From NCBI GenBank assembly GCA_040767965.1, contig JAXGNR010000005.1, positions 96,001-160,000 of the forward strand: a stretch of DNA of 64,000 nucleotides, written 5' to 3'. The position numbers and the translations under genes are program-made. This DNA is from Atribacterota bacterium (GTDB lineage: Bacteria > Atribacterota > Phoenicimicrobiia > Phoenicimicrobiales > Stramentimicrobiaceae). A model generated the notes under the pieces. The model saw nothing but the letters and a program-made list of their open reading frames with translations, searched no databases and was not told the DNA's origin. Each line of letters starts with the position of its first letter. The first letter of the stretch is position 1. Positions 12,361 through 63,253 of this stretch are shown here, one piece after another.

Positions 12361-12564
12361 TACTGGTACCTTTATTAAGTTTTACTTTGGTAAAAATTCT
12401 CCGATATTGACTTTCATTATAAAATTGTTAATTAATAATATTATGAAAAAAACATAAAAGCAAATATAATTAAGATAGTAAAAACTGAGAATATACGCCA
12501 AAATAGACAACAGAGTAATTATAATTATTTTATCTAAAAAATGTTTAGAAAAGGAGAATCATCA

Positions 12565-13452
12565 ATGGATAAAACATTAAGAGAAGAAGAGATTAAGGAA
12601 TTGAAAAAAGCTCAACAGGATGAACTGGTCGGGCAGGAAGTTTATGGCAAGTTAGCAAAATTAGTTAAAGACAAACATAATTCTGCTGTTTTAGCAAAAA
12701 TTGCTGAAGATGAGAGAGAACATGCCAAAATATTTCAAAAATACACAAAAACTGACTTAAAAGTGAACAAATGGCGTGTATTCTTTTATGTCTTAATATC
12801 CCGGGTATTTGGGTTGACTTTTGGCATTAAGTTACAAGAAAAAGGAGAAGAGGCCGCTCAAAATAGCTATAAAAAAATGCTGCAGGCTATTCCTGAAATG
12901 AAAGCAATTATAGAAGCTGAAGAAAAACATGAGGCTGAATTAATTGGTATGATAAATGAAGAAAGATTATCTTATATGAGCTCAGTTGTTTTGGGTTTAA
13001 ATGATGCACTTGTAGAATTAACCGGAGCCCTGGCTGGTTTTACTTTATCAATTCAAAATTCTAGAATGATTGCCCTGCTTGGATTGATCACTGGAATTTC
13101 TGCATCATTTTCCATGGCTGCCAGCGAATATTTATCTACCAAGTCAGAATCTGATCCAGAGGAACAAAAGAGGGCAGGTAAATCAGCTTTATATACCGGA
13201 ACTGCCTATATTTTAACTGTAATTGCTTTAGTTGTTCCGTATTTTTTAATTAGCAATTATATCTACAGTCTTTTAACCACAATCGTTATTGCTTTATTTA
13301 TAATATTTATCTTTAACTATTATATTTCAGTTGCCAATGATTATAACTTCAAAAAAAGATTTATGGAAATGGCTACAATTAGTATTGGTGTAGCAGCCCT
13401 TTCTTTTGTTATTGGATATTTAGTAAAAAACTTTTTAGGTTTTGAGCTATAG
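12565..13452 (+). CDS. Ferritin/rubrerythrin-like domain fused to a VIT1/CCC1 transporter
   Basis: EDEREH and EAEEKH di-iron motifs; LGLNDALVE and SMAASEYLS VIT motifs; SD AAGGAG before ATG 12565. Confidence 0.85.
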   Translation: MDKTLREEEIKELKKAQQDELVGQEVYGKLAKLVKDKHNSAVLAKIAEDEREHAKIFQKYTKTDLKVNKWRVFFYVLISRVFGLTFGIKLQEKGEEAAQNSYKKMLQAIPEMKAIIEAEEKHEAELIGMINEERLSYMSSVVLGLNDALVELTGALAGFTLSIQNSRMIALLGLITGISASFSMAASEYLSTKSESDPEEQKRAGKSALYTGTAYILTVIALVVPYFLISNYIYSLLTTIVIALFIIFIFNYYISVANDYNFKKRFMEMATISIGVAALSFVIGYLVKNFLGFEL

Positions 13453-13601
13453 GTATAATCAATAAATATTTCAGAACAGAACAAATTAATTTTATTGTTT
13501 GATAACATTTTTGAAAGTAATAATCTTAATATAATTGTATTCTTGTAATTAATATAATAGAATAATCAATATTTTATTATGAAAAGAAAAGGTGGGGAAA
13601 A

Positions 13602-14159
13602 GTGAATAATGAAGAAGACAAACAGAAAGTTGAACTTGACTGTGCAAAAGAGCAAATAGCAAGAGTGTGCCAAAGACTGGCTCTTTTGCACCTGTCATTT
13701 GCAAAAACAATTACCGATAAGCTGGGCAAAGAAGAAGGAAGAAAGCTGATTTTGGAAGCAATTAAAGATTATGGTAACAGAATTGGAGTAGAGGCAAAAG
13801 AACTGACAGAAAGACAGGGACTTGCAAATACACCTGAAAATTATAAAAGTGATCTGCCTTTTTTTGGTATGCATGAAAAGGTTGAAGAGGTAAAAGTGGA
13901 TGGAGAAGATAGAAAAAGATCCTATGGGTGTGTAATGGGAGAACTCTGGAAAAAATTAGGAGAAAATGAACTTGGTCGCTTGTATTGCTATGTTGATCCT
14001 GCAAAATATATGGCTTACAATCCTGAATATGTTTTAGTTCATAGAAAATCCATTCCGGATGGTGATCAATTCTGTGAATTCATTGTCAGGAAGACAACTA
14101 AAAAGGAACAGAAAGATTTTCAAAGCCAGGAGCAAGATTGGTCTTATATTGATGAATAA
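13602..14159 (+). CDS. ATC-hydrolase-like (L-2-amino-thiazoline-4-carboxylate hydrolase family) / V4R-like protein
   Basis: GC..W..LG...LGRLYC.VD and GDQFCEF pattern. Confidence 0.6.
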   Translation: MNNEEDKQKVELDCAKEQIARVCQRLALLHLSFAKTITDKLGKEEGRKLILEAIKDYGNRIGVEAKELTERQGLANTPENYKSDLPFFGMHEKVEEVKVDGEDRKRSYGCVMGELWKKLGENELGRLYCYVDPAKYMAYNPEYVLVHRKSIPDGDQFCEFIVRKTTKKEQKDFQSQEQDWSYIDE

Positions 14160-14305
14160 TAAATCAGGCGGAAAAACAACAGAACAGAAACTCAATTAAA
14201 ACTTTATTATTCTTAGTAACAGCATATTTAAATATTTATATTCAATATAAAAGAATATTGTTGAATCTAGTTAAAAAAGAAAAAATTGAAAGAAAAGAGG
14301 CTAAA

Positions 14306-14788
14306 ATGTGGTTTATATATTTAACCGGAACTATATTATCTTTATCTTTCTTGCTGGATAGGGGAAAAACTAAATTAGCCCTGATAAAGGCTGCAAAAAG
14401 ATTTTTGTTTATTATACCTTCTTTTATGATAATGCTAGTATTTGTGTCGATAATATTATTTCTTTTCCCGCAAGAAAAAATAGTAATTTACCTTAACCAG
14501 GGTAACCAGATGTTAAATGTCATCTTGGCTGCATTGGTAGGCTCAATTACTATTATGCCGGGTTTTGTGGTTTTCCCACTAGCAGGTATTCTGAGAAATA
14601 GTGGAATATCTTATACTGTTATTGCTTCCTTTACTACTACTTTGATGATGGTGGGAACAATAACATTTCCTGTTGAGATAACTTATTTTGGCAAAAAAGT
14701 AACTGTAATCCGTAATGTGGTCAGTTTTTTAATCGCAATTATTATTGCATTAGCGATCGGGATTTATTTTAAAGAGGTTTCTTTATGA
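14306..14788 (+). CDS. Predicted permease (DUF318/ArsP-like), first of a pair
   Basis: Hydrophobic; GSITIMPGFVVFPLA and TLMMVG..TFP.E...FG motifs. Confidence 0.7.
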   Translation: MWFIYLTGTILSLSFLLDRGKTKLALIKAAKRFLFIIPSFMIMLVFVSIILFLFPQEKIVIYLNQGNQMLNVILAALVGSITIMPGFVVFPLAGILRNSGISYTVIASFTTTLMMVGTITFPVEITYFGKKVTVIRNVVSFLIAIIIALAIGIYFKEVSL

Positions 14789-15318
14789 AAAAAGATACAA
14801 AAAATAAAAAAAATAAATATATTCAGCTTAGCATTATAGCTTTTTATCTGGTTTTCATTTTACTTTCATTTATTTTTAAAGTTGATGCGGGAGTTGAAAT
14901 AGGGAAAAATTTAATTTCTTTTTTGCTTTATATGCTAAAAATATTACCCTGTGCTTTCATATTAATTGGCTTGTTTGAGGTTTGGGTTTCCAGAGAAAAA
15001 GTTGAAAAACATCTTGGTTATGCAGGTGGTATAAGAGGGTATATCTGGGCAATAATTTTAGCAGGCACAATGGCAGGAGGTCTGCTGGTTGCATTGCCTG
15101 TTTCATCGGCATTATATCATAAAGGTGCCCGATTAAGTGTTATTTTTACCTTCATAAGTGCTTCTGCAATAGTGAGAATACCTATGACTTTATTTGAGGC
15201 TTCTTTTTTAGGAATAGAATTTACTATAATAAGATGGCTTATTTCAATTCCTTTAATAATTACCTTTTCCATATTTTTAGAAAAATATTTAAAAAAACAA
15301 AATTTTTCAATTACATAA
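14785..15318 (+). CDS. Predicted permease (DUF318/ArsP-like), second of a pair
   Basis: LIGLFEVWV, L.HKGA and RIPMTLFEASFLG motifs; ATGA overlap with the previous gene. Confidence 0.7.
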   Translation: MKKDTKNKKNKYIQLSIIAFYLVFILLSFIFKVDAGVEIGKNLISFLLYMLKILPCAFILIGLFEVWVSREKVEKHLGYAGGIRGYIWAIILAGTMAGGLLVALPVSSALYHKGARLSVIFTFISASAIVRIPMTLFEASFLGIEFTIIRWLISIPLIITFSIFLEKYLKKQNFSIT

Positions 15319-16797: not shown

Positions 16798-17064
16798 TTA
16801 ATGCCGATCCCTTTCCAGGTCATAAATCATTTTTTCTAAATACCATTCTTCAGATCGATTTGGGTATTTTTGCTTAAGATTTGCTAATAGCCTGTCTATT
16901 GTTTCATCTGCTAACTCAGGGGTCAGACGTAATAAGGAATAACACCTTTGTCGCAATACCTTTTTCTTGCCGGGTACCTTGCTTTTTTTAGCTATATAAA
17001 ATATATAAATATAGATTACTACCAGAAATAAGGCTGTCCCGAAGATATAGAAAACCTGCTTCAT
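16798..17064 (-). CDS. Small hypothetical membrane-anchored protein
   Basis: N-terminal TM helix; C-terminal KYPNRSEEWYLEKMIYDLERDR resembles a conserved hypothetical tail; SD AAGG. Confidence 0.65.
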   Translation of the reverse strand: MKQVFYIFGTALFLVVIYIYIFYIAKKSKVPGKKKVLRQRCYSLLRLTPELADETIDRLLANLKQKYPNRSEEWYLEKMIYDLERDRH

Positions 17065-17113
17065 AATAAAATACCTTTTTAGAATATGATTTATAAAAAT
17101 AGTTTCTTAAAAA

Positions 17114-17226
17114 TGCCAGTCACATCTTTAGTTGTATTGGTAGGTTATTTTAACACTACTATAAATGTTTTTACAAGTTTTTATAAGCATATGTTATAAT
17201 TTAAAATCAAAAAGTTGCCAATCACA
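17114..17226 (+). promoter_or_regulatory. Extended -10 promoter flanked by two 11-bp direct repeats
   Basis: TGCCAGTCACA (17114) and TGCCAATCACA (17216) flank TGTTATAAT (17192-17200). Confidence 0.45.
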
Positions 17227-17301
17227 AAAAAACAGCCGAACAGAAAAATTGATAGCATTTATTTGTTTAAAAAATATTGTTTTGGATAATGGAGAGATGT
17301 T

Positions 17302-18339
17302 TTGATCGATATTGGAAGAGAAGAAGAGTTAATATCTTATTTACGCAAAATTAATTTTATCTCAACAGGAAATCCAGTCCAGATAAGCGAGTTTGGCGGA
17401 GGAGTCTCCTGTAAAGTAATTCAGGTAAAAACAAACGGAAATAGCTTTGTAATAAAACAGGCTTTATCAAAATTAAAAGTAAAAGACAGTTGGTATTCTG
17501 ACAGAAGTAGAATAATAAATGAAAGAAAATGTTTAGAAGTATATCAGGAGATAATTCCCGATTTCGTTCCCGGGATTTTATATCATGATGACGCCAACTA
17601 TCTTTTTATCATGGAATCAATATCGCCCAATGCAATTCCCTGGAAAAATATACTGTTAAAAGGGAATATTGATTATGATGTAGGGAGAAAAATATCATTT
17701 GCCCTGGCGAAAGTTCATGAACATTCATCAGGGGATTCCAAAATTAAAAATATATTCAATAGTGATAAATTTTTTATTGAGTTACGAATAGAACCTTATC
17801 TGGAGACAATTAAACAAAAACATCCGGCTTTAAATAATCTTATCAGTCAGGCAATCTATTTGCTTTTAACAGACAAAACAGTCCTGGTACATGGTGATTA
17901 TAGCCCAAAAAATATCCTAGTATTACATAAAAATATATTTATCCTGGATTTTGAGGTTGCTCATTGGGGGAATCCTATCTTTGACCTTGCTTTCTTAACC
18001 AACCATCTGCTGCTGAAGTCTATTAAAAATCCCCGGTTGATAGATGAATATCTGGGATTAATGATAGAGATGGTAAATGTGTATTTTGAAAACCGGGGAA
18101 GCGTAAATCGCGCGATTGTTGAAAAAGATACTATTAATTTATTAGCCCTTTTGTTTTTAGCAAGAGTTGATGGAAAATCCCCTGCTGAGTATATTGAAGC
18201 AGAAAGTGATAAAAAAGCAGTGAGAGAACTTAGCTATTCAATGTTATTAGAAGATAATTATGAAAAATATGAACAATTGCCTGATTTATTCAAAAAATAT
18301 TTATTGAAATTTAAGAAAGTAGAGGAATTAGATAAATAA
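17302..18339 (+). CDS. APH/choline-kinase-fold phosphotransferase, distantly methylthioribose-kinase-like
   Basis: GGGVSC loop, VIKQAL Lys, HGDYSPKN catalytic loop, LDFE and DLAF motifs. Confidence 0.82.
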   Translation: MIDIGREEELISYLRKINFISTGNPVQISEFGGGVSCKVIQVKTNGNSFVIKQALSKLKVKDSWYSDRSRIINERKCLEVYQEIIPDFVPGILYHDDANYLFIMESISPNAIPWKNILLKGNIDYDVGRKISFALAKVHEHSSGDSKIKNIFNSDKFFIELRIEPYLETIKQKHPALNNLISQAIYLLLTDKTVLVHGDYSPKNILVLHKNIFILDFEVAHWGNPIFDLAFLTNHLLLKSIKNPRLIDEYLGLMIEMVNVYFENRGSVNRAIVEKDTINLLALLFLARVDGKSPAEYIEAESDKKAVRELSYSMLLEDNYEKYEQLPDLFKKYLLKFKKVEELDK

Positions 18340-19637
18340 TGAGAGGCAGCAAAATTAAAGCAATTAACGCAAGGCAAATATATGATTCAAGAGCCAACCC
18401 GACAGTTGAAGTAGAGATATTTTTGGAAGGAGATATCATTGGTAGAGGAATAGTTCCTTCTGGAGCATCGAAAGGACGTTTTGAAGCATTAGAGTTGAGG
18501 GATGGTGATAAAGGCAGATTAAACGGTAAAAGTGTATTCAATGCTATTGAAAACATTAAAAATATTATTTCACCCAGACTATTGGGTATTGATGTTACTC
18601 AGCAAGAGAAGATAGATCAAATTTTAATAGAATTGGATGGCACTGAAAACAAATCCCGTTTAGGGGCAAATGCAATTTTGGGTGTTTCAATGGCGGCTGC
18701 ATGGGCTGGTGCCAGTTTTTTTAGAGTTCCACTTTATCGATACCTGGGAGGAGATGAAGCAAATCTGATACCAACTCCAATGATTCAAATTATTGGTGGC
18801 GGAGCCCATGCTAATAATGTTATTGATCTGCAGGATTATTTGGTGATACCGATGAAATCTGACAGTTTTGCTTCAGGCTATGAAATGGTTGTTAATGTCT
18901 ATGAAAGCACTAAAAAAATATTTAACCAAAAAAATAAGCCTTTAGGGATTGCTGATGAAGGTGGTTTTTGGCCTTCAGATTTTAAAACTAATGAGGAAGG
19001 ACTGGAATTGTTAATGAGCGGGATAATTGCCGCTGGTTATATACCAGGGGAAGATATTGCAATTGCCCTTGATATTGCCTCCAGTGAGTTTTATGATCAA
19101 AAAATAAAAAAGTATGTATTTGATCTAGAAAAAAAACAATTCACAAGTGCTGAATTTGTAGACTATTTGTGCAGTATTCAACAGAGATATCCAATAATTT
19201 CTATTGAAGATGGGATGGCTGAAGATGATTGGGAAGGCCATCAGCAATTATCAAAAAAACTAAAAGGAAAAGTACAGCTTATAGGTGATGACTTATTCAC
19301 TACTAATGTTAAACGAATAAAAAAAGGTTATGACTTTGGTATTAATAATGCTGTATTGATTAAAATGAATCAGATAGGTACCTTATCAGAAACATTAAAT
19401 GTAATAAAATATACTAAGGAAATAGGATATTTGCCTGTAATTTCAGCAAGATCTGGTGAAACTGAAGATGTGACAATAACTCATTTGGCAATAGCTACCA
19501 ATGCAGGCCAGTTAAAAGTAGGATCTGTAGTCAGGTCAGAACGAACTGTTAAATGGAATGAGGTTATCCGTATTGAAGATAAACTTGGCCAAAAAGCAAA
19601 ATATCTTGGCAAGCATGTTTTTGATAGTATTATTTGA
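18339..19637 (+). CDS. Enolase-family protein (divergent paralogue)
   Basis: DSRANPTVE, PSGAS, LGANAIL, DEGGF, GDDLF, LIKMNQIG and RSGETED motifs, with several non-canonical active-site residues. Confidence 0.88.
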   Translation: MRGSKIKAINARQIYDSRANPTVEVEIFLEGDIIGRGIVPSGASKGRFEALELRDGDKGRLNGKSVFNAIENIKNIISPRLLGIDVTQQEKIDQILIELDGTENKSRLGANAILGVSMAAAWAGASFFRVPLYRYLGGDEANLIPTPMIQIIGGGAHANNVIDLQDYLVIPMKSDSFASGYEMVVNVYESTKKIFNQKNKPLGIADEGGFWPSDFKTNEEGLELLMSGIIAAGYIPGEDIAIALDIASSEFYDQKIKKYVFDLEKKQFTSAEFVDYLCSIQQRYPIISIEDGMAEDDWEGHQQLSKKLKGKVQLIGDDLFTTNVKRIKKGYDFGINNAVLIKMNQIGTLSETLNVIKYTKEIGYLPVISARSGETEDVTITHLAIATNAGQLKVGSVVRSERTVKWNEVIRIEDKLGQKAKYLGKHVFDSII

Positions 19638-19855: not shown

Positions 19856-20386
19856 ATGAAAAAAATAATTAAAGGAATTACAATAGAGTGTATTGTTGGA
19901 GATATTGCAACTCAAAGTGATATAACTGCAGTGGTTAATGCCGCAAATGCTCAATTAAGAACAGGCGGCGGTGTAGCTGGTGCACTCCATAGGGCTGCCG
20001 GGCCAGGATTAGAAGAAGAATGTCGTCCTTTGGCTCCAATTAAGCCAGGAGAAGCAGTTATAACCGGGGCCCATAAATTGCCAAATCGTTTTGTTATTCA
20101 TTGTCTGGGCCCAGTATATGGAATTGATAATCCAGAAGATGTTTTACTGGCTAATTGTTACCGAAATTGTCTTAAAATTGCTGAAGAACATCATATCGAT
20201 TCAATTGCATTTCCTGCAATCTCCACCGGTTCCTTTGGATATCCTATTCAGGAGGCTACTGAAATTGCCATATATGCAATTCAGGAGATGATCTGCAAGC
20301 TGAAAAGTATAAAGCATATTCGTTTTGTTTTGCATGACCAGAATGTACTATATATTTATGAAAATTTAATAGAAAGAATTTTATAG
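19856..20386 (+). CDS. Macro domain protein (YmdB-like O-acetyl-ADP-ribose deacetylase / ADP-ribosylhydrolase)
   Basis: GDI, VNAAN, GGGVAGALH and AFPAISTG motifs. Confidence 0.92.
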   Translation: MKKIIKGITIECIVGDIATQSDITAVVNAANAQLRTGGGVAGALHRAAGPGLEEECRPLAPIKPGEAVITGAHKLPNRFVIHCLGPVYGIDNPEDVLLANCYRNCLKIAEEHHIDSIAFPAISTGSFGYPIQEATEIAIYAIQEMICKLKSIKHIRFVLHDQNVLYIYENLIERIL

Positions 20387-20607: not shown

Positions 20608-21627
20608 TTGAAGAAAAGTTTACTGATTTTATTGGTCATGATAATGGCTGTTTTTGCCTTAACCGGGTGTGATGGCATTACTCCGGCTGAAGGTGAAGGA
20701 GAAGGTGAGGGAGAAGGCGAATTTGAAGGGTCCTGTCCTGAAATAAGCCTGTCTGGTTCAGTTGTTATTGATGGCAAAACTTACGTAAGGGGTATGAGTA
20801 TTTGGGACTTGGAAGGCCCTGAATTATTAGATCTTTATGATGATATTACTCTTACCATAACCTATAAAACCCCTACTGAAGGAACTGCTGCTTATTTATC
20901 TGGTTTTACCTATGGGTTAATTGACACTATTTTTGAGGATGTTATTAAAGACAAAGAAATAGGATTGCTTGACTTAGAAATTCCCATGTTCCCTAATGAA
21001 GATTATACAGTGTACACAGGTTCTTTAAAGCCATACTTGTTAGGCTGGCAAACTGATTGCACTGCTTTTATGATCAAAGTAATTTCCTGTGATGGAGATT
21101 GTGTTTGCAAATTACCTTTTATAGTAGACAATAAACCTCCGTATGCAAGCATAGAAATAGATTTGGACGAAGAGGCTTGTCCTTGTGATGGATGCGCTTT
21201 AACATTTACTTCTGAAATTTTAGAACCAGACTGTGATGATGATATCCTTTGCTGTGGTGATGATTGTTCTGGTTTTGCAGGTTGGTCTATTGCTATTTAT
21301 GATACAAACCCACATAATAAGTGCTGCTCTATTCCATGCGCAGAACCAGTGTTTACCTGTTCGGGAACAGATTGCCCAATTGAATGCACTACAGATTGTT
21401 TGGAAGAAGGTACGTATTATGTAATTACAAATCTGGTAGACAATGTTGGTATAGAAAAAGAATACTATGTAAAAATTGAAATTGGTTCTGATTGTGATAT
21501 AGTAGAAATCATTGAATATGAAGCAAACATCAACATGGATCAATGCCCAGACTGGGAAAATGATTATTATAACATCACTGAAAGTAAAATTTATGGTGAT
21601 TGCGGAAAATTTGAATTTATTGGTTAA
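20608..21627 (+). CDS. Cysteine-rich acidic lipoprotein with a (GE)n linker, function unknown
   Basis: Lipobox LTGC, EGEGEGEGEG tract, 23 Cys; SD AAGGAG. Confidence 0.8.
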   Translation: MKKSLLILLVMIMAVFALTGCDGITPAEGEGEGEGEGEFEGSCPEISLSGSVVIDGKTYVRGMSIWDLEGPELLDLYDDITLTITYKTPTEGTAAYLSGFTYGLIDTIFEDVIKDKEIGLLDLEIPMFPNEDYTVYTGSLKPYLLGWQTDCTAFMIKVISCDGDCVCKLPFIVDNKPPYASIEIDLDEEACPCDGCALTFTSEILEPDCDDDILCCGDDCSGFAGWSIAIYDTNPHNKCCSIPCAEPVFTCSGTDCPIECTTDCLEEGTYYVITNLVDNVGIEKEYYVKIEIGSDCDIVEIIEYEANINMDQCPDWENDYYNITESKIYGDCGKFEFIG

Positions 21628-21643
21628 TTAAAACAATATACTG

Positions 21644-21679
21644 AATAAAAAAGGGCCTTTTAAAAGGCCCTTTTTTATT
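21644..21679. terminator. Bidirectional terminator, perfect 36-bp palindrome
   Basis: AATAAAAAAGGGCCTTTT|AAAAGGCCCTTTTTTATT between convergent genes. Confidence 0.88.
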
Positions 21680-22304
21680 TTAAAATTTTTTTAACCTCAT
21701 GTACCGGAATAATATTGGGTTTTTTACCTAAAATAGCTTGCATTACTGTCAGGTAGGCAGATGTTTCCAGAGTTTCCATTCTGGCATAAGCTGTTTCAAT
21801 TGAGCTTCCACAAGTAGTAGCTCCATGATTTTCCATAATAAATACATTGTATCCATCTCGCACTTCTTTAACAAATTTTTCTGCAAATAATTCAGTACCC
21901 GGCTTGCAATAGGGCAAATAAGCAATTTTTTCTAATATTACAAGCGCTTCAGGAAGAGTATTTAATAAGATTTGCAGATTATTGATTGCGCATAATAAAA
22001 CATTTCTGGGATGGGCATGGAAAATGCTTTTAATATCTTTTTTGTTCTGATAAATTTTTATATGCATTTTAATCTCTGAAGAAGGTTTATATTTTCCCTC
22101 TAATTGTTTACCATTAAGATCGGTAACAACAATATCTTCTTTAGTAAAAAAATGTTTAATAAAATTAGAAGGGGTTATATAAATTCTATCATTTAACATG
22201 ATACTCATATTGCCTCCAGTAGATTCGGTGAGCTGTCTATCCCAGGTTAACCGTACATAGCTGACAAATTTTTGTAATAGTCTTTCCTCAATACAATTAT
22301 TCAA
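21675..22304 (-). CDS. Class II aldolase (L-fuculose-1-phosphate aldolase-like)
   Basis: GGNMS, ITPS, PSSE..MH, HAHP and ENHG motifs; divergent from fucU-fucI. Confidence 0.85.
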   Translation of the reverse strand: MNNCIEERLLQKFVSYVRLTWDRQLTESTGGNMSIMLNDRIYITPSNFIKHFFTKEDIVVTDLNGKQLEGKYKPSSEIKMHIKIYQNKKDIKSIFHAHPRNVLLCAINNLQILLNTLPEALVILEKIAYLPYCKPGTELFAEKFVKEVRDGYNVFIMENHGATTCGSSIETAYARMETLETSAYLTVMQAILGKKPNIIPVHEVKKILK

Positions 22305-22530
22305 AATTTCCTCCTGACTTTATTGTATTTTCTAAAAATATTTTGCTATTACTTTTAAAAATTATATCATTGTTTCTAAAAAAAAGTTTAAAAGTCAAAA
22401 TATTTTAAAAAAACTGTTATAATTAATATCATAGGATTTTAAATAAAAATATATAAAAATGCTAATCCTTCAATTATTGCAAATTTCCAAAAGATCTTTC
22501 AATCTATTTTTTTAAGGAGGATTCTCTTTT

Positions 22531-22950
22531 ATGTTGAAAAATATTCCCCCAATACTATCTCCCACATTAATGTTATCAATTATGGAAATGGGACACGGTG
22601 ATGAAATAGTTCTAGCAGATGGGAATTATCCCGTTGAGTCAACTGCAACCATTTCAGTAAGAGCTGATGGACATGGAATTCCAGAATTATTAGAGGCAAT
22701 TTTAAAGTTTTTCCCCTTAGATCAACAAGCCATAAACAATGTCTTTTTCATGAAAAAAGATGAAAAGGAAAAACCATCAATCTGGCAAAAATACCAAACA
22801 ATTCTTGATAATTCTCAAGAAAAATATGCAATTGAAAAATTAGACAGGTTCCAGTTTTATGAAAGGGCAAGAGAGGCTTACACTATTGTTGCTACTGGAG
22901 AAAAAACACTCTATGCAAATATAATATTAAAAAAAGGTGTTGTGGAATAA
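22531..22950 (+). CDS. fucU: L-fucose mutarotase (RbsD/FucU family)
   Basis: MGHGDEIVLADGNYP, RFQFYE and YANIILKKGV motifs. Confidence 0.9.
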   Translation: MLKNIPPILSPTLMLSIMEMGHGDEIVLADGNYPVESTATISVRADGHGIPELLEAILKFFPLDQQAINNVFFMKKDEKEKPSIWQKYQTILDNSQEKYAIEKLDRFQFYERAREAYTIVATGEKTLYANIILKKGVVE

Positions 22951-23031
22951 CAAATTTATTTAAAGGATGCTGTAAGGGGATTTTTAAAATATAAAATCTT
23001 TTAATTAATAAAAGTAAAAAAGGAGAGTTTT

Positions 23032-24819
23032 ATGAAATTTGAGAACAGATTAATCGGGTCAATGCCAAAAGTTGGAATCAGGCCTATTATTGACGGGAGA
23101 AGAAGAGGGGTACGGGAATCGTTGGAGAAACAGACAATAGAGATGGCCAAGGATGTTGCAAAATTAATAAGTTCCAACTTGAGACATTCTAATGGCACGA
23201 ATGTTGAATGTGTTCTAGCTGATACCACTATTGGAGGTTTTGCTGAAGCAGCAAAGTGTGCCGATAAGTTCTCCAGGGAAAATGTGGGGGTTTCCCTAAG
23301 TGTAACTCCATGTTGGTGTTATGGAATGGAAACTATTGATCTGGATCCGTATTTGCCAAAAGCCATTTGGGGTTTCAATGGAACCGAAAGACCTGGGGCA
23401 GTTTATCTGGCAGCTGCCCTTGCTGGTCATGATCAGTTAGGGTTACCAGCTTTTGGAATTTATGGAAAAAATGTAAGAGATTTAGAAGATAAGAATATTC
23501 CTGAAGATGTGCAATCAAAAATATTTCAATTTGTCAAATCCGGATTAGCAGTTTCTTATATGAAAGGAAAATCATACCTGGCTTTAGGCGGAGTTTCTAT
23601 GGGGATTGCCGGATCAATAGTAAATCCAGAATTTTTTCAAGACTATTTAGGAATGCGAACTGAATTTGTTGATATGTCTGAATTTGTACGCCGTTTAAAA
23701 GAAGAAATTTTTGACAAAGAGGAATTTACTAGAGCTCTTGATTGGGCAAAAGAAAATTGTAGAGAAGGTGTTGATAGAAACAATGAAAAAATAAGACACT
23801 CTCGCAAAAAGAAAGATGATGAATGGGGTACAGTTATAAAAATGACTTTGATTGCCAGAGATTTAATGATTGGAAATAAAAAATTGATTGATTTGGGCTA
23901 TGAAGAAGAAGCAGAAGGCCATAATGCGCTAGCTGCAGGATTTCAAGGACAAAGGCAGTGGACAGATAATTTCCCTGACGGAGATTTTATGGAAACAATA
24001 CTTAATACTTCCTTTGACTGGAATGGAGTTAGAGAGCCATTTATCTTTGCAACAGAGAATGATTGTTTAAACGGTGTAGCTATGCTATGGAATCATCTTA
24101 TTTCCAATCGGGCTCAGATGTTTTCTGATGTAAGAACATTCTGGAGCCCTGAAGCAGTTTTCAGAGTAACTGGAAAACAATTAACAGGAAAAGCTGAAAA
24201 TGGTATAATTCATCTGATTAATTCAGGATCCACTACCCTTGATGCAACCGGTCAGCAAAAAGATAATCAGCAGTCAGTGATGAAACCTTTCTGGGAATTA
24301 AACCAGGAAGACGTGAAAGCTTGTTTAGAAAATACCAGCTGGAGTCCAGCAAATTTGGAATATATGCGTGGAGGTGGTTTTTCATCAACATTCTGGACTA
24401 AAGGCGAAATGCCAGTAACCATGTCCAGAATTAATTTAATTAAAGGAATAGGCCCGGTTTTACAAATTGCCGAAGGTTATACAGTTGAATTATTGGAGGA
24501 GATAAGCTTTATTTTAACTGAAAGGACTGACCCTGCCTGGCCAACCACCTGGTTTGTCCCTATATTAACTGGAAAAGGTGCGTTTCGAGATGTTTATTCA
24601 GTAATGAATCATTGGGGAGCAAATCATGGAGCTATCAGTTATGGACATATCGGAAAAGATTTAATTACACTAGCTTCCATACTGAGAATTCCAGTAGCAA
24701 TGCATAATATTTCTGAAGAAAATATATTCAGACCTAAGACATGGGGCTCGTTTGGTACTCAAGATCTGGAAGGAGCAGATTATAGGGCATGTAAAAATTT
24801 TGGACCATTGTATCGATAG
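23032..24819 (+). CDS. fucI: L-fucose isomerase
   Basis: [42 protein letters not shown] and WGANHG motifs. Confidence 0.96.
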
Positions 24820-61666: not shown

Positions 61667-61810
61667 GACTTAAAATATAAGGGACATTTATTCAACTCCA
61701 CTTTAAAAGATAGAGTAAAAATATTTTAAATATTTACAAAAAATTCATATTTATAAATATAATATTAAATAATAAAATAAATAGTATAACTAAATTATCA
61801 GGAGATAAAA

Positions 61811-63253
61811 ATGAAATTACCAGAATTTAAAACAAAAATTATTTGTACTTTAGGACCGGCAACCCATAATAAAGACATAATAAAAAAATTAGTACTGGCC
61901 GGCATGAATGTAGGCAGGCTCAATCTGGCTCATGATACCAAAGATTATCATCGGAATACATTAAAGTATGTTCGTGAAGTAGAAAAAGAACTAAATGTAT
62001 CAATTCCAGTAATGATGGACATTCCTGGTCCAAAAATAAGAATTGGTACAATAGAAAATGGGCCGGTCGTCTTGAAAAAAGGAGAAATGGTTCGATTAAC
62101 GACAAAAAAAATAATTGGTAATAATGCTATTATACCTGTTGAATATCAGCATTTATTTAAGAGTATAAAAAAAGATAGCCTTGTATATTTATATGATGGC
62201 TTTATTCAGCTTAAAGTAAAAGAGATTATTGATGATGAAGCTTTCTGTCAGGTTATAACCGGTGGAAAACTTGATTCGCATAAAGGCCTTAATTTACCCA
62301 ATAGTAAAATATACCTTGATCCTATCAGCGAAGAAGACCTTGAACTAATATCCTTTGGCTTGGAAGAAGGAGTGTCTATTTTTGGCATATCATTTGTGGA
62401 AAAAGCTGAAGATATTGTTAAGGTAAAAGAATTTGCCCAAAAAAAAGGTAAAGAAATATTTACTATTGCCAAAATTGAGCGAGAAGAAGCTGTAAATAAT
62501 ATAGATGAGATATTAAAAGTTACTGATGCCGTTATGATAGCCAGAGGAGATTTAGGAGTACAGGTTGATATTCAAAACATCCCAGTTATTCAAAAAAAAT
62601 TAATCTCCCAGGCAAATTTAATGAGTAGGCCTGTAATTACTGCAACTCAAATGTTAGTTTCTATGACTGAACATATCCGCCCAACTCGTTCTGAGGTTAC
62701 TGATGTTGCTAATGCTATTTTAGATGGCACTGATGCTACTATGCTTTCAGAAGAAACCGCTGTTGGTCAATTTCCAGTTGAAGCAACCAGGATGATGGCT
62801 AGTATAGCCATATCAACTGAAAGACAATATAGGAATTTAAGTTATACTTCTTCTTTGATGAACAATCTTCATAATTCTTTTCTGCAACAAAAACCATCAG
62901 TTGAAGATGTAATATCAATTCATACAATGGAAAGTAGCCAAATATTAAGAGCTAAATATATATTAACTCCAACGGAAAGTGGAAATACTGCACGTAGAAT
63001 TTCGAGATTTAAGCCTTATTGCTGGATTTTTGCGTTTACTACTAACAAATTCAAGGCTCGTTTTTTAAGTCTTTCGTATGGAGTTATACCTTTTTTGATG
63101 CCTGAACAAAAAGGTGACTGGTATAAGAGTATTTTAAATTTATTAAACGAGAAGAAACTAATCAACAAAGGTGAAAATTTAATATTAACAGAAGGCACTA
63201 TAAGAAGAAAAATAGGTGGTACTGATACAATCAGAATTATTTCAGTAGAATAA
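61811..63253 (+). CDS. pyk: Pyruvate kinase
   Basis: TKIICTLGPA, GPKIR, AKIE, MIARGDLGV, ATQML.SM and DVANAILDGTDA motifs. Confidence 0.94.
   Translation: MKLPEFKTKIICTLGPATHNKDIIKKLVLAGMNVGRLNLAHDTKDYHRNTLKYVREVEKELNVSIPVMMDIPGPKIRIGTIENGPVVLKKGEMVRLTTKKIIGNNAIIPVEYQHLFKSIKKDSLVYLYDGFIQLKVKEIIDDEAFCQVITGGKLDSHKGLNLPNSKIYLDPISEEDLELISFGLEEGVSIFGISFVEKAEDIVKVKEFAQKKGKEIFTIAKIEREEAVNNIDEILKVTDAVMIARGDLGVQVDIQNIPVIQKKLISQANLMSRPVITATQMLVSMTEHIRPTRSEVTDVANAILDGTDATMLSEETAVGQFPVEATRMMASIAISTERQYRNLSYTSSLMNNLHNSFLQQKPSVEDVISIHTMESSQILRAKYILTPTESGNTARRISRFKPYCWIFAFTTNKFKARFLSLSYGVIPFLMPEQKGDWYKSILNLLNEKKLINKGENLILTEGTIRRKIGGTDTIRIISVE

Follow-up and report, generated by a model that had tools for sequence, protein, structure and literature searches.

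To our knowledge, only one function has been ascribed to the enolase family proper. In the yeast enzyme, Glu168 and His373 lie beside the C3 hydroxyl and are nearly invariant among canonical enolases. MtnK, which belongs to the APH/eukaryotic-like kinase superfamily, phosphorylates a sugar (it is a sugar 1-kinase), not an acid. The arrangement of CdaR with GntP is typical of glycerate kinase clusters, and GntP permeases carry tetronates in E. coli. Two described pathways bear on the locus presented here. In the lower branch of the non-phosphorylative Entner-Doudoroff and glycerate pathways, phosphorylation of a 2-hydroxy acid at O2 precedes its dehydration, which yields an enol phosphate (PMC2063504). 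The Route III pathway for pentoses and 6-deoxyhexoses uses a 2-keto-3-deoxy-acid 4-dehydrogenase and an FAH-family hydrolase and, in the available part of the published account, includes neither a kinase nor an enolase-family step (Watanabe et al. 2019, PMC6336799).

Here, we analyze a kinase gene that overlaps an enolase-like gene in an Atribacterota-like genome (Table 1). The window is the whole 64,000-nucleotide stretch of DNA that was analyzed. That the two genes travel together across many phyla suggests a so far undescribed route of two steps, by which a hydroxy acid derived from sugar would become an enol phosphate rich in energy. We put at roughly 60% the probability that the two genes form one catabolic module, in which phosphorylation at O2 would be followed by enolase-type dehydration to an enol phosphate. 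The overlap described in the first-pass annotation is present, with both open reading frames in place, and the boundary between the genes is a predicted translational coupling junction. The region scanned for promoters contains 29 consensus matches versus 18.6 expected. Two metatranscriptome libraries contain short contigs that match parts of the enolase gene exactly (X17 at 18475-18739 and X20 at 19358-19546). They provide a weak hint of expression; DNA carry-over is possible, strand and level are not readable from contigs, and a lack of coverage elsewhere carries no information. The window also contains a fucI-fucU-fucA-like cluster with no FGGY kinase nearby.

Table 1. Features of the kinase-enolase locus (positions within the window).
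Feature	Position	Strand	Remarks
Intergenic region 5' of the pair	17065-17301	+	Preceding gene (16798-17064) lies on the opposite strand
Promoter-like matches	17180-17207, 17249-17278	+	Consensus matches only
Kinase ribosome-binding site GGAGAG	17291-17296	+	Reported 8 nt 5' of the TTG start
MtnK-fold small-molecule kinase (APH/eukaryotic-like kinase superfamily)	17302-18339	+	345 aa, TTG start
Kinase ATP-site Lys52	17455-17457	+	Invariant column in 19 sequences
Kinase HGDxxxxN catalytic loop, His197-Asn204	17890-17913	+	Includes Asp199; invariant in 19 sequences
Kinase metal-binding Asp216	17947-17949	+	Invariant in 19 sequences
Kinase LARVDGK motif, Arg288 and Lys292			Family-specific
Kinase/enolase junction	18321-18341	+	AGAGGAA ribosome-binding site within the kinase 3' end; junction gataaaTAATGagagg
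Kinase stop TAA and enolase ATG	18337-18339, 18339-18341	+	One base common to stop and start
Enolase-family paralogue	18339-19637	+	432 aa
Asp166 (for yeast Glu168)	18834-18836	+	Clade-defining
Ala205 (for Gly, just before DEGG)	18951-18953	+	Clade-defining
Ala370 (for yeast His373)	19446-19448	+	Clade-defining
Val394 (for yeast Thr397)	19518-19520	+	Clade-defining

The kinase scores 42 bits against the Pfam APH model (PF01636; cut-off 23.2) and 72 bits, over its N-terminal part only, against the MtnK equivalog model TIGR01767, far below the cut-off of 275. Its AlphaFold model (pLDDT 92.9) has the bilobal fold of APH-type kinases, and a Foldseek comparison ranks structures of MtnK first (TMq 0.79-0.84, 14-18% identity). 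No methionine-salvage genes (mtnA, mtnB, or others) occur in the window or among the recurrent neighbor families of 80 loci. Six basic residues are invariant across the kinase family (R70, K115, R162, R288, K292, and R308), which is suggestive of an anionic substrate. The kinase is homologous to neither class of glycerate kinase (I or II); its gene context is compatible with a glycerate 2-kinase.

The partner is an enolase by family membership, with scores of 553 bits against TIGR01060 (cut-off 300), 318 bits against PF00113, and 184 bits against PF03952. Its best solved relative is the Bacillus subtilis enolase 4a3r (472 bits), and its identity to bacterial enolases is about 50%. Residue-level alignment to 4a3r and 1iyx, combined with a motif table, bears out all of the motifs that had been listed as kept (ALD, IED, GDD, LIKMNQ, DEGG, the loop His, and RS) or altered (LQDY, SARS, QIIGG, SGASK, and LKVG). 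Residue numbers (168, 211, 345, 373, 397, and so on) and residue roles follow the yeast enzyme; a literature search on these residues returned nothing useful. The paralogue retains the Mg ligands (Asp245, Glu290, and Asp317), Ser44 (yeast Ser39), His157 (His159), Glu207 (Glu211), Lys342 (Lys345), Arg371-Ser372, and Lys393 (Lys396). Across the aligned linked enolases, the catalytic Lys and Glu, the Mg ligands, and the phosphate-site residues are invariant.

At position 168, all 67 linked enolases carry Asp, whereas all 11 canonical enolases carry Glu. Position 373 is Ala in 65 of the 67 and Gly in the other two, versus His in 11/11 canonical sequences, and position 397 is Val or Ile in 66/67, versus Thr or Ser in 11/11. 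Thus, of the five altered motifs, LQDY, SARS, and LKVG reflect clade-defining substitutions (E168D, H373A, and T397V/I), whereas SGASK and QIIGG are lineage-specific and not family features: most relatives have SGAST, and half have N..SGG. A fourth clade-defining change, Gly to Ala before DEGG (62/67), was missing from the original list. With Asp166 and Ala370 in place of Glu168 and His373, the paralogue lacks the residue signature of a canonical enolase. In a quick maximum-likelihood tree that omits five partial sequences (L034, L037, L056, L058, and L074), 66 linked enolases group together (SH-aLRT 99), and the canonical enolases fall outside this clade. The substitutions at positions 168 and 373 may enlarge the pocket to admit a C3-substituted substrate.

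In the host genome, a canonical enolase (682 bits, with IQEF and SHRS) is encoded on the same contig 95 kb downstream, outside the window (G000:C5:208975-210252), and is the copy that the first-pass annotation had advised seeking; the paralogue is therefore neither the single nor the principal enolase. An enolase of the canonical type (QE..SHRS..KTG) without an adjoining kinase is likewise present in the 10 other pair-holding genomes checked, making 11/11. The claim that the pair lies away from glycolytic genes holds for the neighboring genes at 12-25 kb; the sole pyruvate kinase of the genome lies ~42 kb downstream, within the window. The 2.3-Mb genome carries three more enolase paralogues, each adjoining a gene of the glycerate-kinase (MOFRL) family. 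Among five pair-holding genomes, four encode a class I glycerate kinase. Given that the pocket changes are invariant and that the paralogue is kept beside a normal enolase, the kinase product is perhaps handled poorly by the housekeeping enzyme.

The pairing is conserved, as are the altered residues. Among 80 genome loci found with the kinase profile, 70 have an enolase-like gene directly downstream on the same strand. Three of the 10 remaining loci end within 450 nt of the kinase; thus, in 7 of the 77 loci where sufficient sequence follows, a related kinase occurs in the absence of an enolase, and some members of the kinase family work otherwise. In 68 of the 70 linked loci, the genes overlap by 1-11 nt (by 4 nt in 27) or are separated by <150 nt, and in one locus (L025), they are fused. 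In an independent metagenome set, an enolase lies within 400 nt in 45 of 56 loci having at least 1 kb of downstream sequence. These adjacency counts rest on tblastn, as simple ORF calling merged or missed genes in high-GC loci. Neither a sole enolase nor an unlinked kinase, the two outcomes the first-pass annotation had set against its own proposal, is what we find.

Gene fusions extend the association. Among 71 longer kinase homologues, 28 are kinase-enolase fusions, and 33 are fusions of a D-2-hydroxyacid dehydrogenase to the kinase, the latter being the new element of this analysis. The domain orders are dehydrogenase-kinase and kinase-enolase, and most of the fused enolase domains listed show the QD, DEGG, SARS, and K[VI]G motifs. 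The fused dehydrogenase is of the D-isomer-specific family (PF00389/PF02826). An unfused trio in the order dehydrogenase, kinase, enolase occurs in six of the seven loci that have a dehydrogenase upstream. From the fusions and gene order, we infer that the reactions would run in that same order and that the kinase substrate would be a D-(2R)-hydroxy acid. The earlier idea that the kinase acts on a 2-hydroxyl and the enolase dehydrates the product fits both fusion types. Among more remote homologues of the kinase, the fusion partner is mannonate dehydratase (UxuA), an FGGY kinase, a PfkB kinase, or a lactonase, and thus, kinase specificity may vary.

Given the fusions and linkage counts, the pairing is not due to chance. 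They bear directly on the least probable alternative, an ordinary isozyme that sits beside an unrelated kinase by accident, or a pair devoted to L-glycerate. The TIGR01060 score, which exceeds the cut-off and leads pipelines to name the paralogue phosphopyruvate hydratase, favors the isozyme, and by Route III logic, L-hexonates would presumably yield L-glycerate. Accidental pairing is nonetheless excluded by the linkage statistics and fusions, and the D-specific dehydrogenase argues against an L-acid, so L-glycerate was dropped as a substrate. The fusions also weigh on a second, very unlikely notion, namely that the kinase acts on a neutral sugar, such as a ketose from the nearby fucose isomerase or from the arabinose isomerase of Nanopelagicaceae (acI), with the enolase serving a different, non-consecutive step. 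The nearest solved fold is that of MtnK, and its action on a sugar rather than an acid counts against a 2-hydroxy-acid mechanism; moreover, the fuc-like cluster in the window lacks an FGGY kinase, and one acI operon type encodes AraA, a binding protein, two permeases, the kinase, and the enolase. However, fucose and arabinose isomerases are missing from most of 160 loci, in which the enolase is nearly always present, and the 28 and 33 fusions point to consecutive steps on a 2-hydroxy acid.

We therefore return to the module of two consecutive steps. First, the MtnK-fold kinase would transfer phosphate from ATP to the 2-hydroxyl of a D-(2R)-2,3-dihydroxy carboxylic acid, supplied, depending on the organism, by the D-2-hydroxyacid dehydrogenase, an aldehyde dehydrogenase, a diketo-acid hydrolase, or an uptake system. 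Second, as the retained residues suggest, the paralogue would bind the 2-phospho acid through a pair of Mg ions; removal of the C2 proton would fall to the conserved Lys (yeast Lys345), and the conserved Glu (Glu211), acting as an acid, would expel the C3 hydroxyl. The product would be phosphoenolpyruvate (PEP) if the substrate is D-glycerate and a 3-substituted PEP analogue otherwise. Third, the enol phosphate would give its phosphate back to ADP, such that the dehydration would proceed at no net ATP cost. A structure prediction for a kinase-enolase complex scored 0.00, which says nothing either way on complex formation. Within this mechanism, the odds are about even between D-glycerate and a slightly larger or C3-substituted acid. 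Each choice raises a difficulty: D-glycerate would yield ordinary 2-phosphoglycerate, making a dedicated enolase look redundant, whereas a longer acid would call for a partner that harvests an unusual enol phosphate, yet pyruvate kinase is near the pair in only 1 of 160 loci.

Neighboring genes suggest a catabolic setting and inform this choice. The recurrent neighbors are an SDR (21 loci), an FAH-family hydrolase (12), an aldehyde dehydrogenase (12), an MR/MLE dehydratase (10), a D-2-hydroxyacid dehydrogenase (8), and an IlvD-type dehydratase (7), along with CdaR and GntP. These neighborhoods fit D-glycerate at least as well as an acid of more than three carbons. One possibility, which we regard as tentative, is a private glycerate-to-PEP route in which the kinase would add a new, fourth type to the D-glycerate 2-kinases and the paralogue would be a genuine 2-phosphoglycerate enolase. 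The altered pocket would then leave substrate choice as it is and could, for instance, adjust kinetics or lessen inhibition by compounds such as phosphorylated tartronate semialdehyde. Every residue required for 2-phosphoglycerate dehydration is kept. Hydroxypyruvate-reductase-like dehydrogenases are fused or adjoin upstream, an aldehyde dehydrogenase is directly upstream in five loci (L020, L022, L051, L054, and L080), CdaR and GntP cluster with the pair in three (L012, L015, and L016), and in L131, the gene after the trio encodes a TPP enzyme similar in size to glyoxylate carboligase. The SDR and FAH genes match Route III enzymes, whose action frees a short 2-hydroxy acid (PMC6336799). The pair has no companion genes in many genomes, and thus, its substrate and product should be common metabolites. 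No dedicated downstream enzyme recurs. Against glycerate stand the normal enolase kept alongside the paralogue even in streamlined genomes, the class I glycerate kinases noted above, a MOFRL glycerate kinase in the same cluster in two Natronomonas loci, and the four invariantly altered pocket positions.

The other possibility is a longer or C3-substituted (2R)-2,3-dihydroxy acid (a tetronate, 4-deoxytetronate, or aldonate). In this equally tentative reading, which is the first-pass proposal in its strict form, the pair would do the work of an acid-sugar dehydratase at the temporary expense of ATP, yielding a new enol phosphate of a 2-keto-3-deoxy acid. The pocket is remodeled on the C3 side, the pair is non-redundant with canonical enolase and glycerate kinase, distant kinase homologues are fused to UxuA, a lactonase, and sugar kinases, and GntP permeases of E. 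coli transport tetronates. In addition, four loci (L043, L123, L125, and L126) contain 2-keto-3-deoxy-acid enzymes (SDR and FAH) with no MR/MLE or IlvD dehydratase in view. By contrast, a dehydratase is present in many other clusters (Nanopelagicaceae (acI) loci, L035, L044, and L081), and neither a pyruvate-kinase-like nor an aldolase partner recurs. In its furthest-reaching form, which we likewise regard as tentative, the pair would be a self-contained dehydratase with ATP as co-catalyst, turning a non-glycerate D-2,3-dihydroxy acid (tetronate, deoxy-tetronate, or aldonate) into a novel 3-substituted enol phosphate whose phosphate would pass to ADP via the same kinase or the housekeeping pyruvate kinase.

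A quite different fate for the acid, desulfonation, appears improbable. The idea is that the dehydrogenase would make (R)-3-sulfolactate from sulfopyruvate, the kinase would make (2R)-phosphosulfolactate, and the paralogue would eliminate sulfite to give PEP, in reverse of archaeal ComA. Chemistry and stereochemistry are feasible by the ComA precedent, and the Vibrio hannami cluster L022 (AGE-family isomerase, PfkB kinase, class II aldolase, aldehyde dehydrogenase, kinase, and enolase) resembles a sulfoglycolysis layout. However, its isomerase scores 98 bits against the sulfoquinovose isomerase model (cut-off 700), and a phmmer search of 80 loci with one TauE query, which has limited reach, found no TauE/SafE sulfite exporter. 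Moreover, the substitutions His to Ala and Thr to Val remove polar groups from the pocket and bring in no sulfonate binders, and the general acid Glu211 is retained, though sulfite requires none. Two further candidates were considered and dropped: tartrate with a URO-D-type decarboxylase, and O-methylated acids, an idea prompted by an MtaA/CmuA-like gene, for which a corrinoid partner was not in view. That gene follows the enolase in L012, L014, and L015 and lies upstream of the CdaR gene in L016.

The pair spans many bacterial and archaeal phyla, at times fused. The kinase family comprises 1016 representatives of 50%-identity clusters at E <= 1e-30, with at least 594 matching stretches among species genomes. 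Holders include abundant freshwater Nanopelagicaceae, marine Bacteroidota, Verrucomicrobiota, Planctomycetota, haloarchaea, and Nitrososphaerota. Roughly half of the Nanopelagicaceae genomes in our sample probably have the pair: a low-scoring second enolase is present in 38 of 81 of these streamlined genomes, the variant type being confirmed for one (G001) only, and 37 of the 38 also contain a canonical enolase or fragments of one. Elsewhere, the kinase is rare: of 401 genomes sampled from the phylum to which the Enterocloster holder belongs, one has it, as do two of 86 from the window's own phylum. We read this as patchy, transfer-like spread, a claim limited by the incompleteness of metagenome-assembled genomes. 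In the Atribacterota-like genome, the pair is a rare two-gene operon, probably acquired horizontally.

Pipelines name the paralogue phosphopyruvate hydratase and the kinase a phosphotransferase or methylthioribose kinase, and thus, these names conceal a conserved, probably distinct pair of enzymes across hundreds of species. A second enolase specificity, or a private kinase-coupled route to PEP, would alter reconstructions of carbon flux through sugar and sugar-acid catabolism. The dehydrogenase-kinase-enolase fusions offer a testable reaction order and a short list of candidate substrates. In agreement with the first-pass annotation, which could name no characterized pathway, we found no paper or curated family for the pair in a search of openly accessible papers, nor a specific model in NCBIfam release 20; the available parts of PMC12994016, PMC8305020, and PMC6336799 do not mention it.

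Compared with known systems, the paralogue shares with canonical enolase (EC 4.2.1.11; TIGR01060; PF03952 and PF00113; 4a3r and yeast 1ebg) the two-domain fold family, Mg ligands, phosphate site, and catalytic Lys and Glu. It differs by Asp for Glu168, Ala for His373, Val/Ile for Thr397, and Ala before DEGG, and it forms a separate clade that adjoins or is fused to its own kinase and coexists with a normal enolase. The kinase shares with MtnK (TIGR01767; 2pyw, 2olc, and 2pun) and the APH/choline-kinase fold a KQALP-type N-lobe, the HGDxxxxN loop, and the metal Asp. Unlike MtnK, it is ~50 residues shorter, has its own invariant Arg/Lys-rich motifs (LARVDGK), and is genetically tied to an enolase and a 2-hydroxyacid dehydrogenase rather than to methionine salvage. 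The logic resembles that of a glycerate 2-kinase (MOFRL class II or GlxK class I) acting with enolase, as do the aldehyde dehydrogenase and hydroxypyruvate-reductase-like neighbors, but the kinase fold is unrelated, the enolase is a dedicated variant, and the genes are translationally coupled or fused. With Route III, the pair shares its commonest neighbors, the SDR and FAH-family genes, and a role as an extension of, or entry to, that pathway would be unreported. If the pair is a self-contained kinase-enolase dehydratase, it would replace Fe-S or MR/MLE acid-sugar dehydratases. Finally, the three MOFRL-linked pairs of this genome likewise place a hydroxy-acid-kinase gene beside an enolase paralogue in sugar-acid clusters. 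Those paralogues have lost Glu211 (DEGG to SPGG, PGIT, or DVGG) and His373, whereas the pair studied here keeps Glu211, and thus, their chemistry must differ; in the quick tree, one of the three (C10:95887-97158) is placed, weakly supported, within the linked clade. If the dehydratase reading is true, the two kinds of pair together would define an unexplored pathway class, hydroxy-acid kinase plus enolase-like lyase, with four such pairs in one 2.3-Mb genome.

The kinase and enolase genes look like a two-gene operon, because the gene 5′ of them lies on the opposite strand and a 219-nt gap separates them from the first gene 3′, which encodes a macro-domain protein. At their junction, gataaaTAATGagagg, the stop codon of the kinase and the ATG of the enolase have one base in common, and an AGAGGAA ribosome-binding site lies 13 nt before that ATG. 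The kinase matches Pfam APH at 42 bits and, weakly and N-terminally, the MtnK model TIGR01767 (72 bits versus a cut-off of 275). For a profile of 19 family members, the nearest solved protein is MtnK, at only 51–55 bits, and the AlphaFold model of the kinase (pLDDT 92.9) superposes best on MtnK structures (TMq 0.79–0.84, 14–18% identity). Across the family, Lys52 of the ATP site, the HGDxxxxN loop, and Asp216, which binds metal, are invariant. The enolase paralogue scores 553 bits against TIGR01060 (cut-off 300), matches both Pfam domains of enolase, and aligns end to end with Bacillus subtilis enolase 4a3r (472 bits).

Locations of the gene pair, of surrounding features in the window, and of further enolase-like genes in the same genome (G000; C, contig) and related contigs (L)
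Feature	Location	Strand	Remarks
Kinase gene	17302-18339	+	345 aa; TTG start, GGAGAG 8 nt before it (ORF listing)
Enolase-like gene	18339-19637	+	432 aa (ORF listing)
Gene 5′ of the pair	16798-17064	-
Macro-domain protein gene	19856-20386; L009:8212-8742		O-acetyl-ADP-ribose deacetylase-like, 180 bits, below the cut-off of 200
VIT1-family gene, then two ArsP_1-type permease genes	12541-15318; L009:2056-4451; L162:725-2661		Permeases half-size (~175 aa), with overlapping coding regions
Lipoprotein-like ORF	20608-21627		339 aa; (Gly-Glu)n linker past the signal Cys; many Cys; no Pfam family
fucA-like class II aldolase, fucU mutarotase, fucI L-fucose isomerase	21675-24819	fucA-like: -	fucI 1056 bits
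Pyruvate kinase gene	61790-63253		Genome's single copy, ~42 kb downstream of the pair
MOFRL-linked enolase paralogues	G000 C10:95887-98617; C6:22823-25464; C11:51377-54065		Outside the window
Further divergent enolase-like genes	G000 C10:10808-12061; C10:83928-85208		Outside the window

The paralogue has a remodelled active site. The first-pass annotation had named a set of retained and altered motifs, and alignments to solved enolases together with a motif table bear out every one in this protein. Specifically, the protein retains the Mg ligands, the catalytic Lys, the Glu of DEGG that serves as general acid, the loop His, and the Arg-Ser that binds phosphate; it has LQDY for IQEF, SARS for SHRS, and LKVG for IKTG. 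The paralogue retains all the residues required for binding a 2-phospho carboxylate on two metals, removing the C2 proton, and protonating a C3 leaving group. For positions we use yeast numbers (Glu168, His373, Thr397, Glu211, Lys345) and residue roles that we take from classical enolase knowledge. When 67 kinase-linked enolases were compared with 11 canonical enolases from similar kinds of genomes, six columns separated the groups, four of them in the active-site region. The Glu168 position is Asp in all 67 linked enolases and Glu in all 11 canonical ones; the His373 position is Ala (65) or Gly (2) versus His (11); the Thr397 position is Val (52), Ile (14), or Asn (1) versus Thr (10) or Ser (1); and the Gly preceding DEGG is Ala (62), Gly (3), or Ser (2) versus Gly (11). 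Those residue roles would place the four altered positions around the C3 side. Of the five changes originally listed, those of Glu168, His373, and Thr397 (in LQDY, SARS, and LKVG) characterise the linked clade; a fourth such substitution, of the Gly preceding DEGG, is not in that list. SGASK and QIIGG are no family features: the former is limited to a few close relatives, and the latter marks one of two subclades, the other carrying N..SGG.

Linked enolases coexist with normal enolase. A quick maximum-likelihood tree of 77 rows, from which five partial sequences were omitted, places the 66 linked enolases in a single clade (SH-aLRT 99) separate from canonical enolases. The window genome has the canonical eno that the first-pass annotation suggested looking for: a 682-bit protein with IQEF, SHRS, and IKTG, encoded on the same contig 95 kb downstream of the pair. 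Ten further genomes holding the pair, from ten lineages, likewise have a normal enolase with no adjoining kinase (11 of 11 in total); the Vibrio hannami canonical copy is in two reading frames. Of 81 genomes sampled from the streamlined Nanopelagicaceae, 38 encode a second, low-scoring enolase (345–421 bits), accompanied by a full canonical copy in 35, fragments in 2, and none in 1; the motif check covers only G001 and 13 Nanopelagicaceae-type (acI) loci.

The kinase linkage is conserved. A kinase profile search of one-genome-per-species contigs gave 80 loci, with matching stretches numbering more than 594. In 70 of these loci, tblastn finds a same-strand enolase-like gene directly 3′ of the kinase, starting less than 150 nt from the kinase stop in 68 and with an ATGA-type 4-nt overlap in 27; in one, from a Gaiellaceae genome (L025), kinase and enolase are a single reading frame. 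In three of the ten loci without an enolase (L049, L077, L082) the sequence stops no more than 450 nt from the kinase, and the other seven carry more distant kinases with different neighbours. An independent set of 80 metagenome contigs includes 56 loci with at least 1 kb of downstream DNA, and the enolase lies within 400 nt downstream in 45 and within 1.5 kb in 48. The earlier proposal hinged on a second, canonical enolase in the genome and on a linkage that is conserved; because normal enolase coexists in 11 of 11 genomes and the linkage recurs in both sets, it stands on both points. Some genomes have two paralogue copies (L116 at G494:C39; L119 and L115 in G493), and in Nocardioides L116 the order is reversed, with the enolase first, followed by a more divergent kinase.

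Fusion proteins repeat the gene order. Among 71 longer kinase relatives (605–2000 aa), 28 are kinase–enolase fusions with the kinase N-terminal, 33 are fusions of an N-terminal D-2-hydroxyacid dehydrogenase to the kinase, and 10 are other combinations. Most of the fused enolase parts listed carry QD, DEGG, SARS (or SGRS), and [IL]K[VI]G. The order, in genes and in fusions, is dehydrogenase, kinase, enolase. We propose that the kinase transfers phosphate to the 2-hydroxyl of a D-(2R)-2,3-dihydroxy acid, that the paralogue dehydrates the product to an enol phosphate, and that the enol phosphate would then yield ATP. We put the probability of this two-step kinase–enolase mechanism at about 0.6. 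The dehydrogenase fused to the kinase belongs to the D-isomer-specific family, which argues against L-glycerate as the substrate.

What, then, is the acid? All ORFs of the 80 genome loci were clustered and representatives scanned. The recurrent neighbours are short-chain dehydrogenases (SDRs; 21 loci), FAH-family hydrolases and aldehyde dehydrogenases (12 each), MR/MLE dehydratases and ABC transport ATPases (10 each), D-2-hydroxyacid dehydrogenases (8), and IlvD-type dehydratases (7). Directly upstream of the pair on the same strand lie an aldehyde dehydrogenase (L020, L022, L051, L054, L080), an SDR (the acI loci, L043, L044, L062, L085), an MR/MLE dehydratase (L067, L078, L081), a 2-hydroxyacid dehydrogenase (L086), or sugar ABC permeases following arabinose isomerase (L059, L061, L070, L079). 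In the metagenome set, L123 and L125 are LacI-controlled operons of dehydrogenase–kinase, enolase, and FAH hydrolase; in L131 the trio is followed by a TPP enzyme, and in L143 the pair by a GH127 arabinofuranosidase. Such a gene set is that of non-phosphorylative catabolism of sugars and sugar acids, and it includes enzymes of Route III, the non-phosphorylative pentose/6-deoxyhexose pathway (Watanabe et al. 2019, PMC6336799).

Within the two-step mechanism, the odds are roughly even between D-glycerate and a larger or C3-substituted acid. The hydroxypyruvate-reductase-like dehydrogenases and neighbouring aldehyde dehydrogenases fit D-glycerate, as does the short hydroxy acid released by Route III enzymes. 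So does the layout in anaerobes of CdaR regulator, GntP permease, kinase, enolase, and an MtaA/URO-D-like gene (L012, L015, L016; L014 in part). Moreover, the pair stands alone in many genomes, and a recurrent downstream enzyme is absent, with only 1 of 160 loci having a pyruvate kinase close by. However, for plain D-glycerate the paralogue would duplicate the normal enolase, including in genomes that are streamlined; four of five genomes holding the pair also have a class I glycerate kinase; a MOFRL (class II) glycerate kinase lies within the same Natronomonas clusters as the pair; and the pocket changes are invariant. A larger acid is favoured by clusters in which the enzymes for 2-keto-3-deoxy acids (SDR and FAH) occur with no dehydratase in view (L043, L123, L125, L126), and by distant kinase homologues fused to mannonate dehydratase, lactonase, and sugar kinases. 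Sulfolactate gains no support from sulfite exporters, none of which was found in 80 loci by phmmer with a single TauE query of limited reach.

Several features near the pair are recorded here in their own right. The MtaA/CmuA-family (URO-D fold) gene of the Bacillota and Spirochaetota anaerobes immediately follows the enolase in three loci (L012, L014, L015) and lies ahead of the CdaR gene in L016, with no corrinoid protein in view near it in these four loci. The macro-domain gene lies 3′ of the pair in both Atribacterota genomes, and the VIT1/ArsP_1-type set is kept upstream in three related low-GC contigs. The fucA-like, fucU, and fucI genes lie 2 kb downstream of the window's pair and lack an adjacent fuculokinase gene; FGGY-kinase matches number just two in the genome, on contigs C7 and C4. 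The other Atribacterota genome has the pair next to genes for a sugar-binding protein, a DeoR regulator, and a class II aldolase.

The window's 2.33-Mb genome holds seven enolase-like matches (E ≤ 1e-30); 21 relatives from its family have 0–3. Three extra copies, all lacking Glu211 and His373, each adjoin a DUF4147 plus MOFRL gene of the class II glycerate-kinase family, in sugar-acid clusters containing TRAP/TTT transporters, MR/MLE dehydratase, 2-hydroxyacid dehydrogenases, FAH hydrolase, and HpcH aldolase. The C6 paralogue is in two reading frames, and the C10 MOFRL kinase in two ORFs. Thus, counting the pair, the arrangement of a hydroxy-acid kinase with an enolase-like enzyme occurs four times in this genome, with two unrelated kinase folds. 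Of the two further divergent genes, one comes after the genes for three components of a 2-oxoacid dehydrogenase complex (E1 alpha, E1 beta, E2) and ahead of SDR, acetate-kinase-like, and PTA_PTB genes; the other is near a TauE exporter, gamma-glutamyltranspeptidase, SDR, and MR/MLE genes.

The kinase family is of moderate size, counting 1016 representatives of 50%-identity clusters (E ≤ 1e-30), and its distribution is patchy. Kinase loci occur in Atribacterota, Bacillota, Spirochaetota, Bacteroidota, Balneolota, Verrucomicrobiota, Planctomycetota, Acidobacteriota, Chloroflexota, Actinomycetota, and Pseudomonadota, and, among archaea, in haloarchaea and Nitrososphaerota. Of 401 genomes sampled in the phylum to which the Enterocloster holder belongs, one has the kinase, as do 2 of 86 from the window's own phylum. 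In the tree, the sister of the window's paralogue is the protein of another Atribacterota MAG (76% identity), followed by those of Bacillota and Spirochaetota anaerobes. This patchiness and tree position suggest that the window's genome acquired the pair horizontally. The stretch itself turns up again in metagenomes from landfills, digesters, bioreactors, and wastewater; short identical contigs in two metatranscriptome libraries are only a weak hint of expression.

For either protein, NCBIfam release 20 offers only "eno" and sub-threshold MtnK models, and in the sources the two are called phosphopyruvate hydratase, phosphotransferase, or methylthioribose kinase. The first-pass annotation could name no characterised pathway with this pair, and we find no description of it in the open full-text literature, supplements aside. 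Route III, in the available portion of its publication (PMC6336799), is reported with neither a kinase nor an enolase-family step. The pair amounts to an as yet uncharacterised enzyme of the enolase family together with a kinase of its own.
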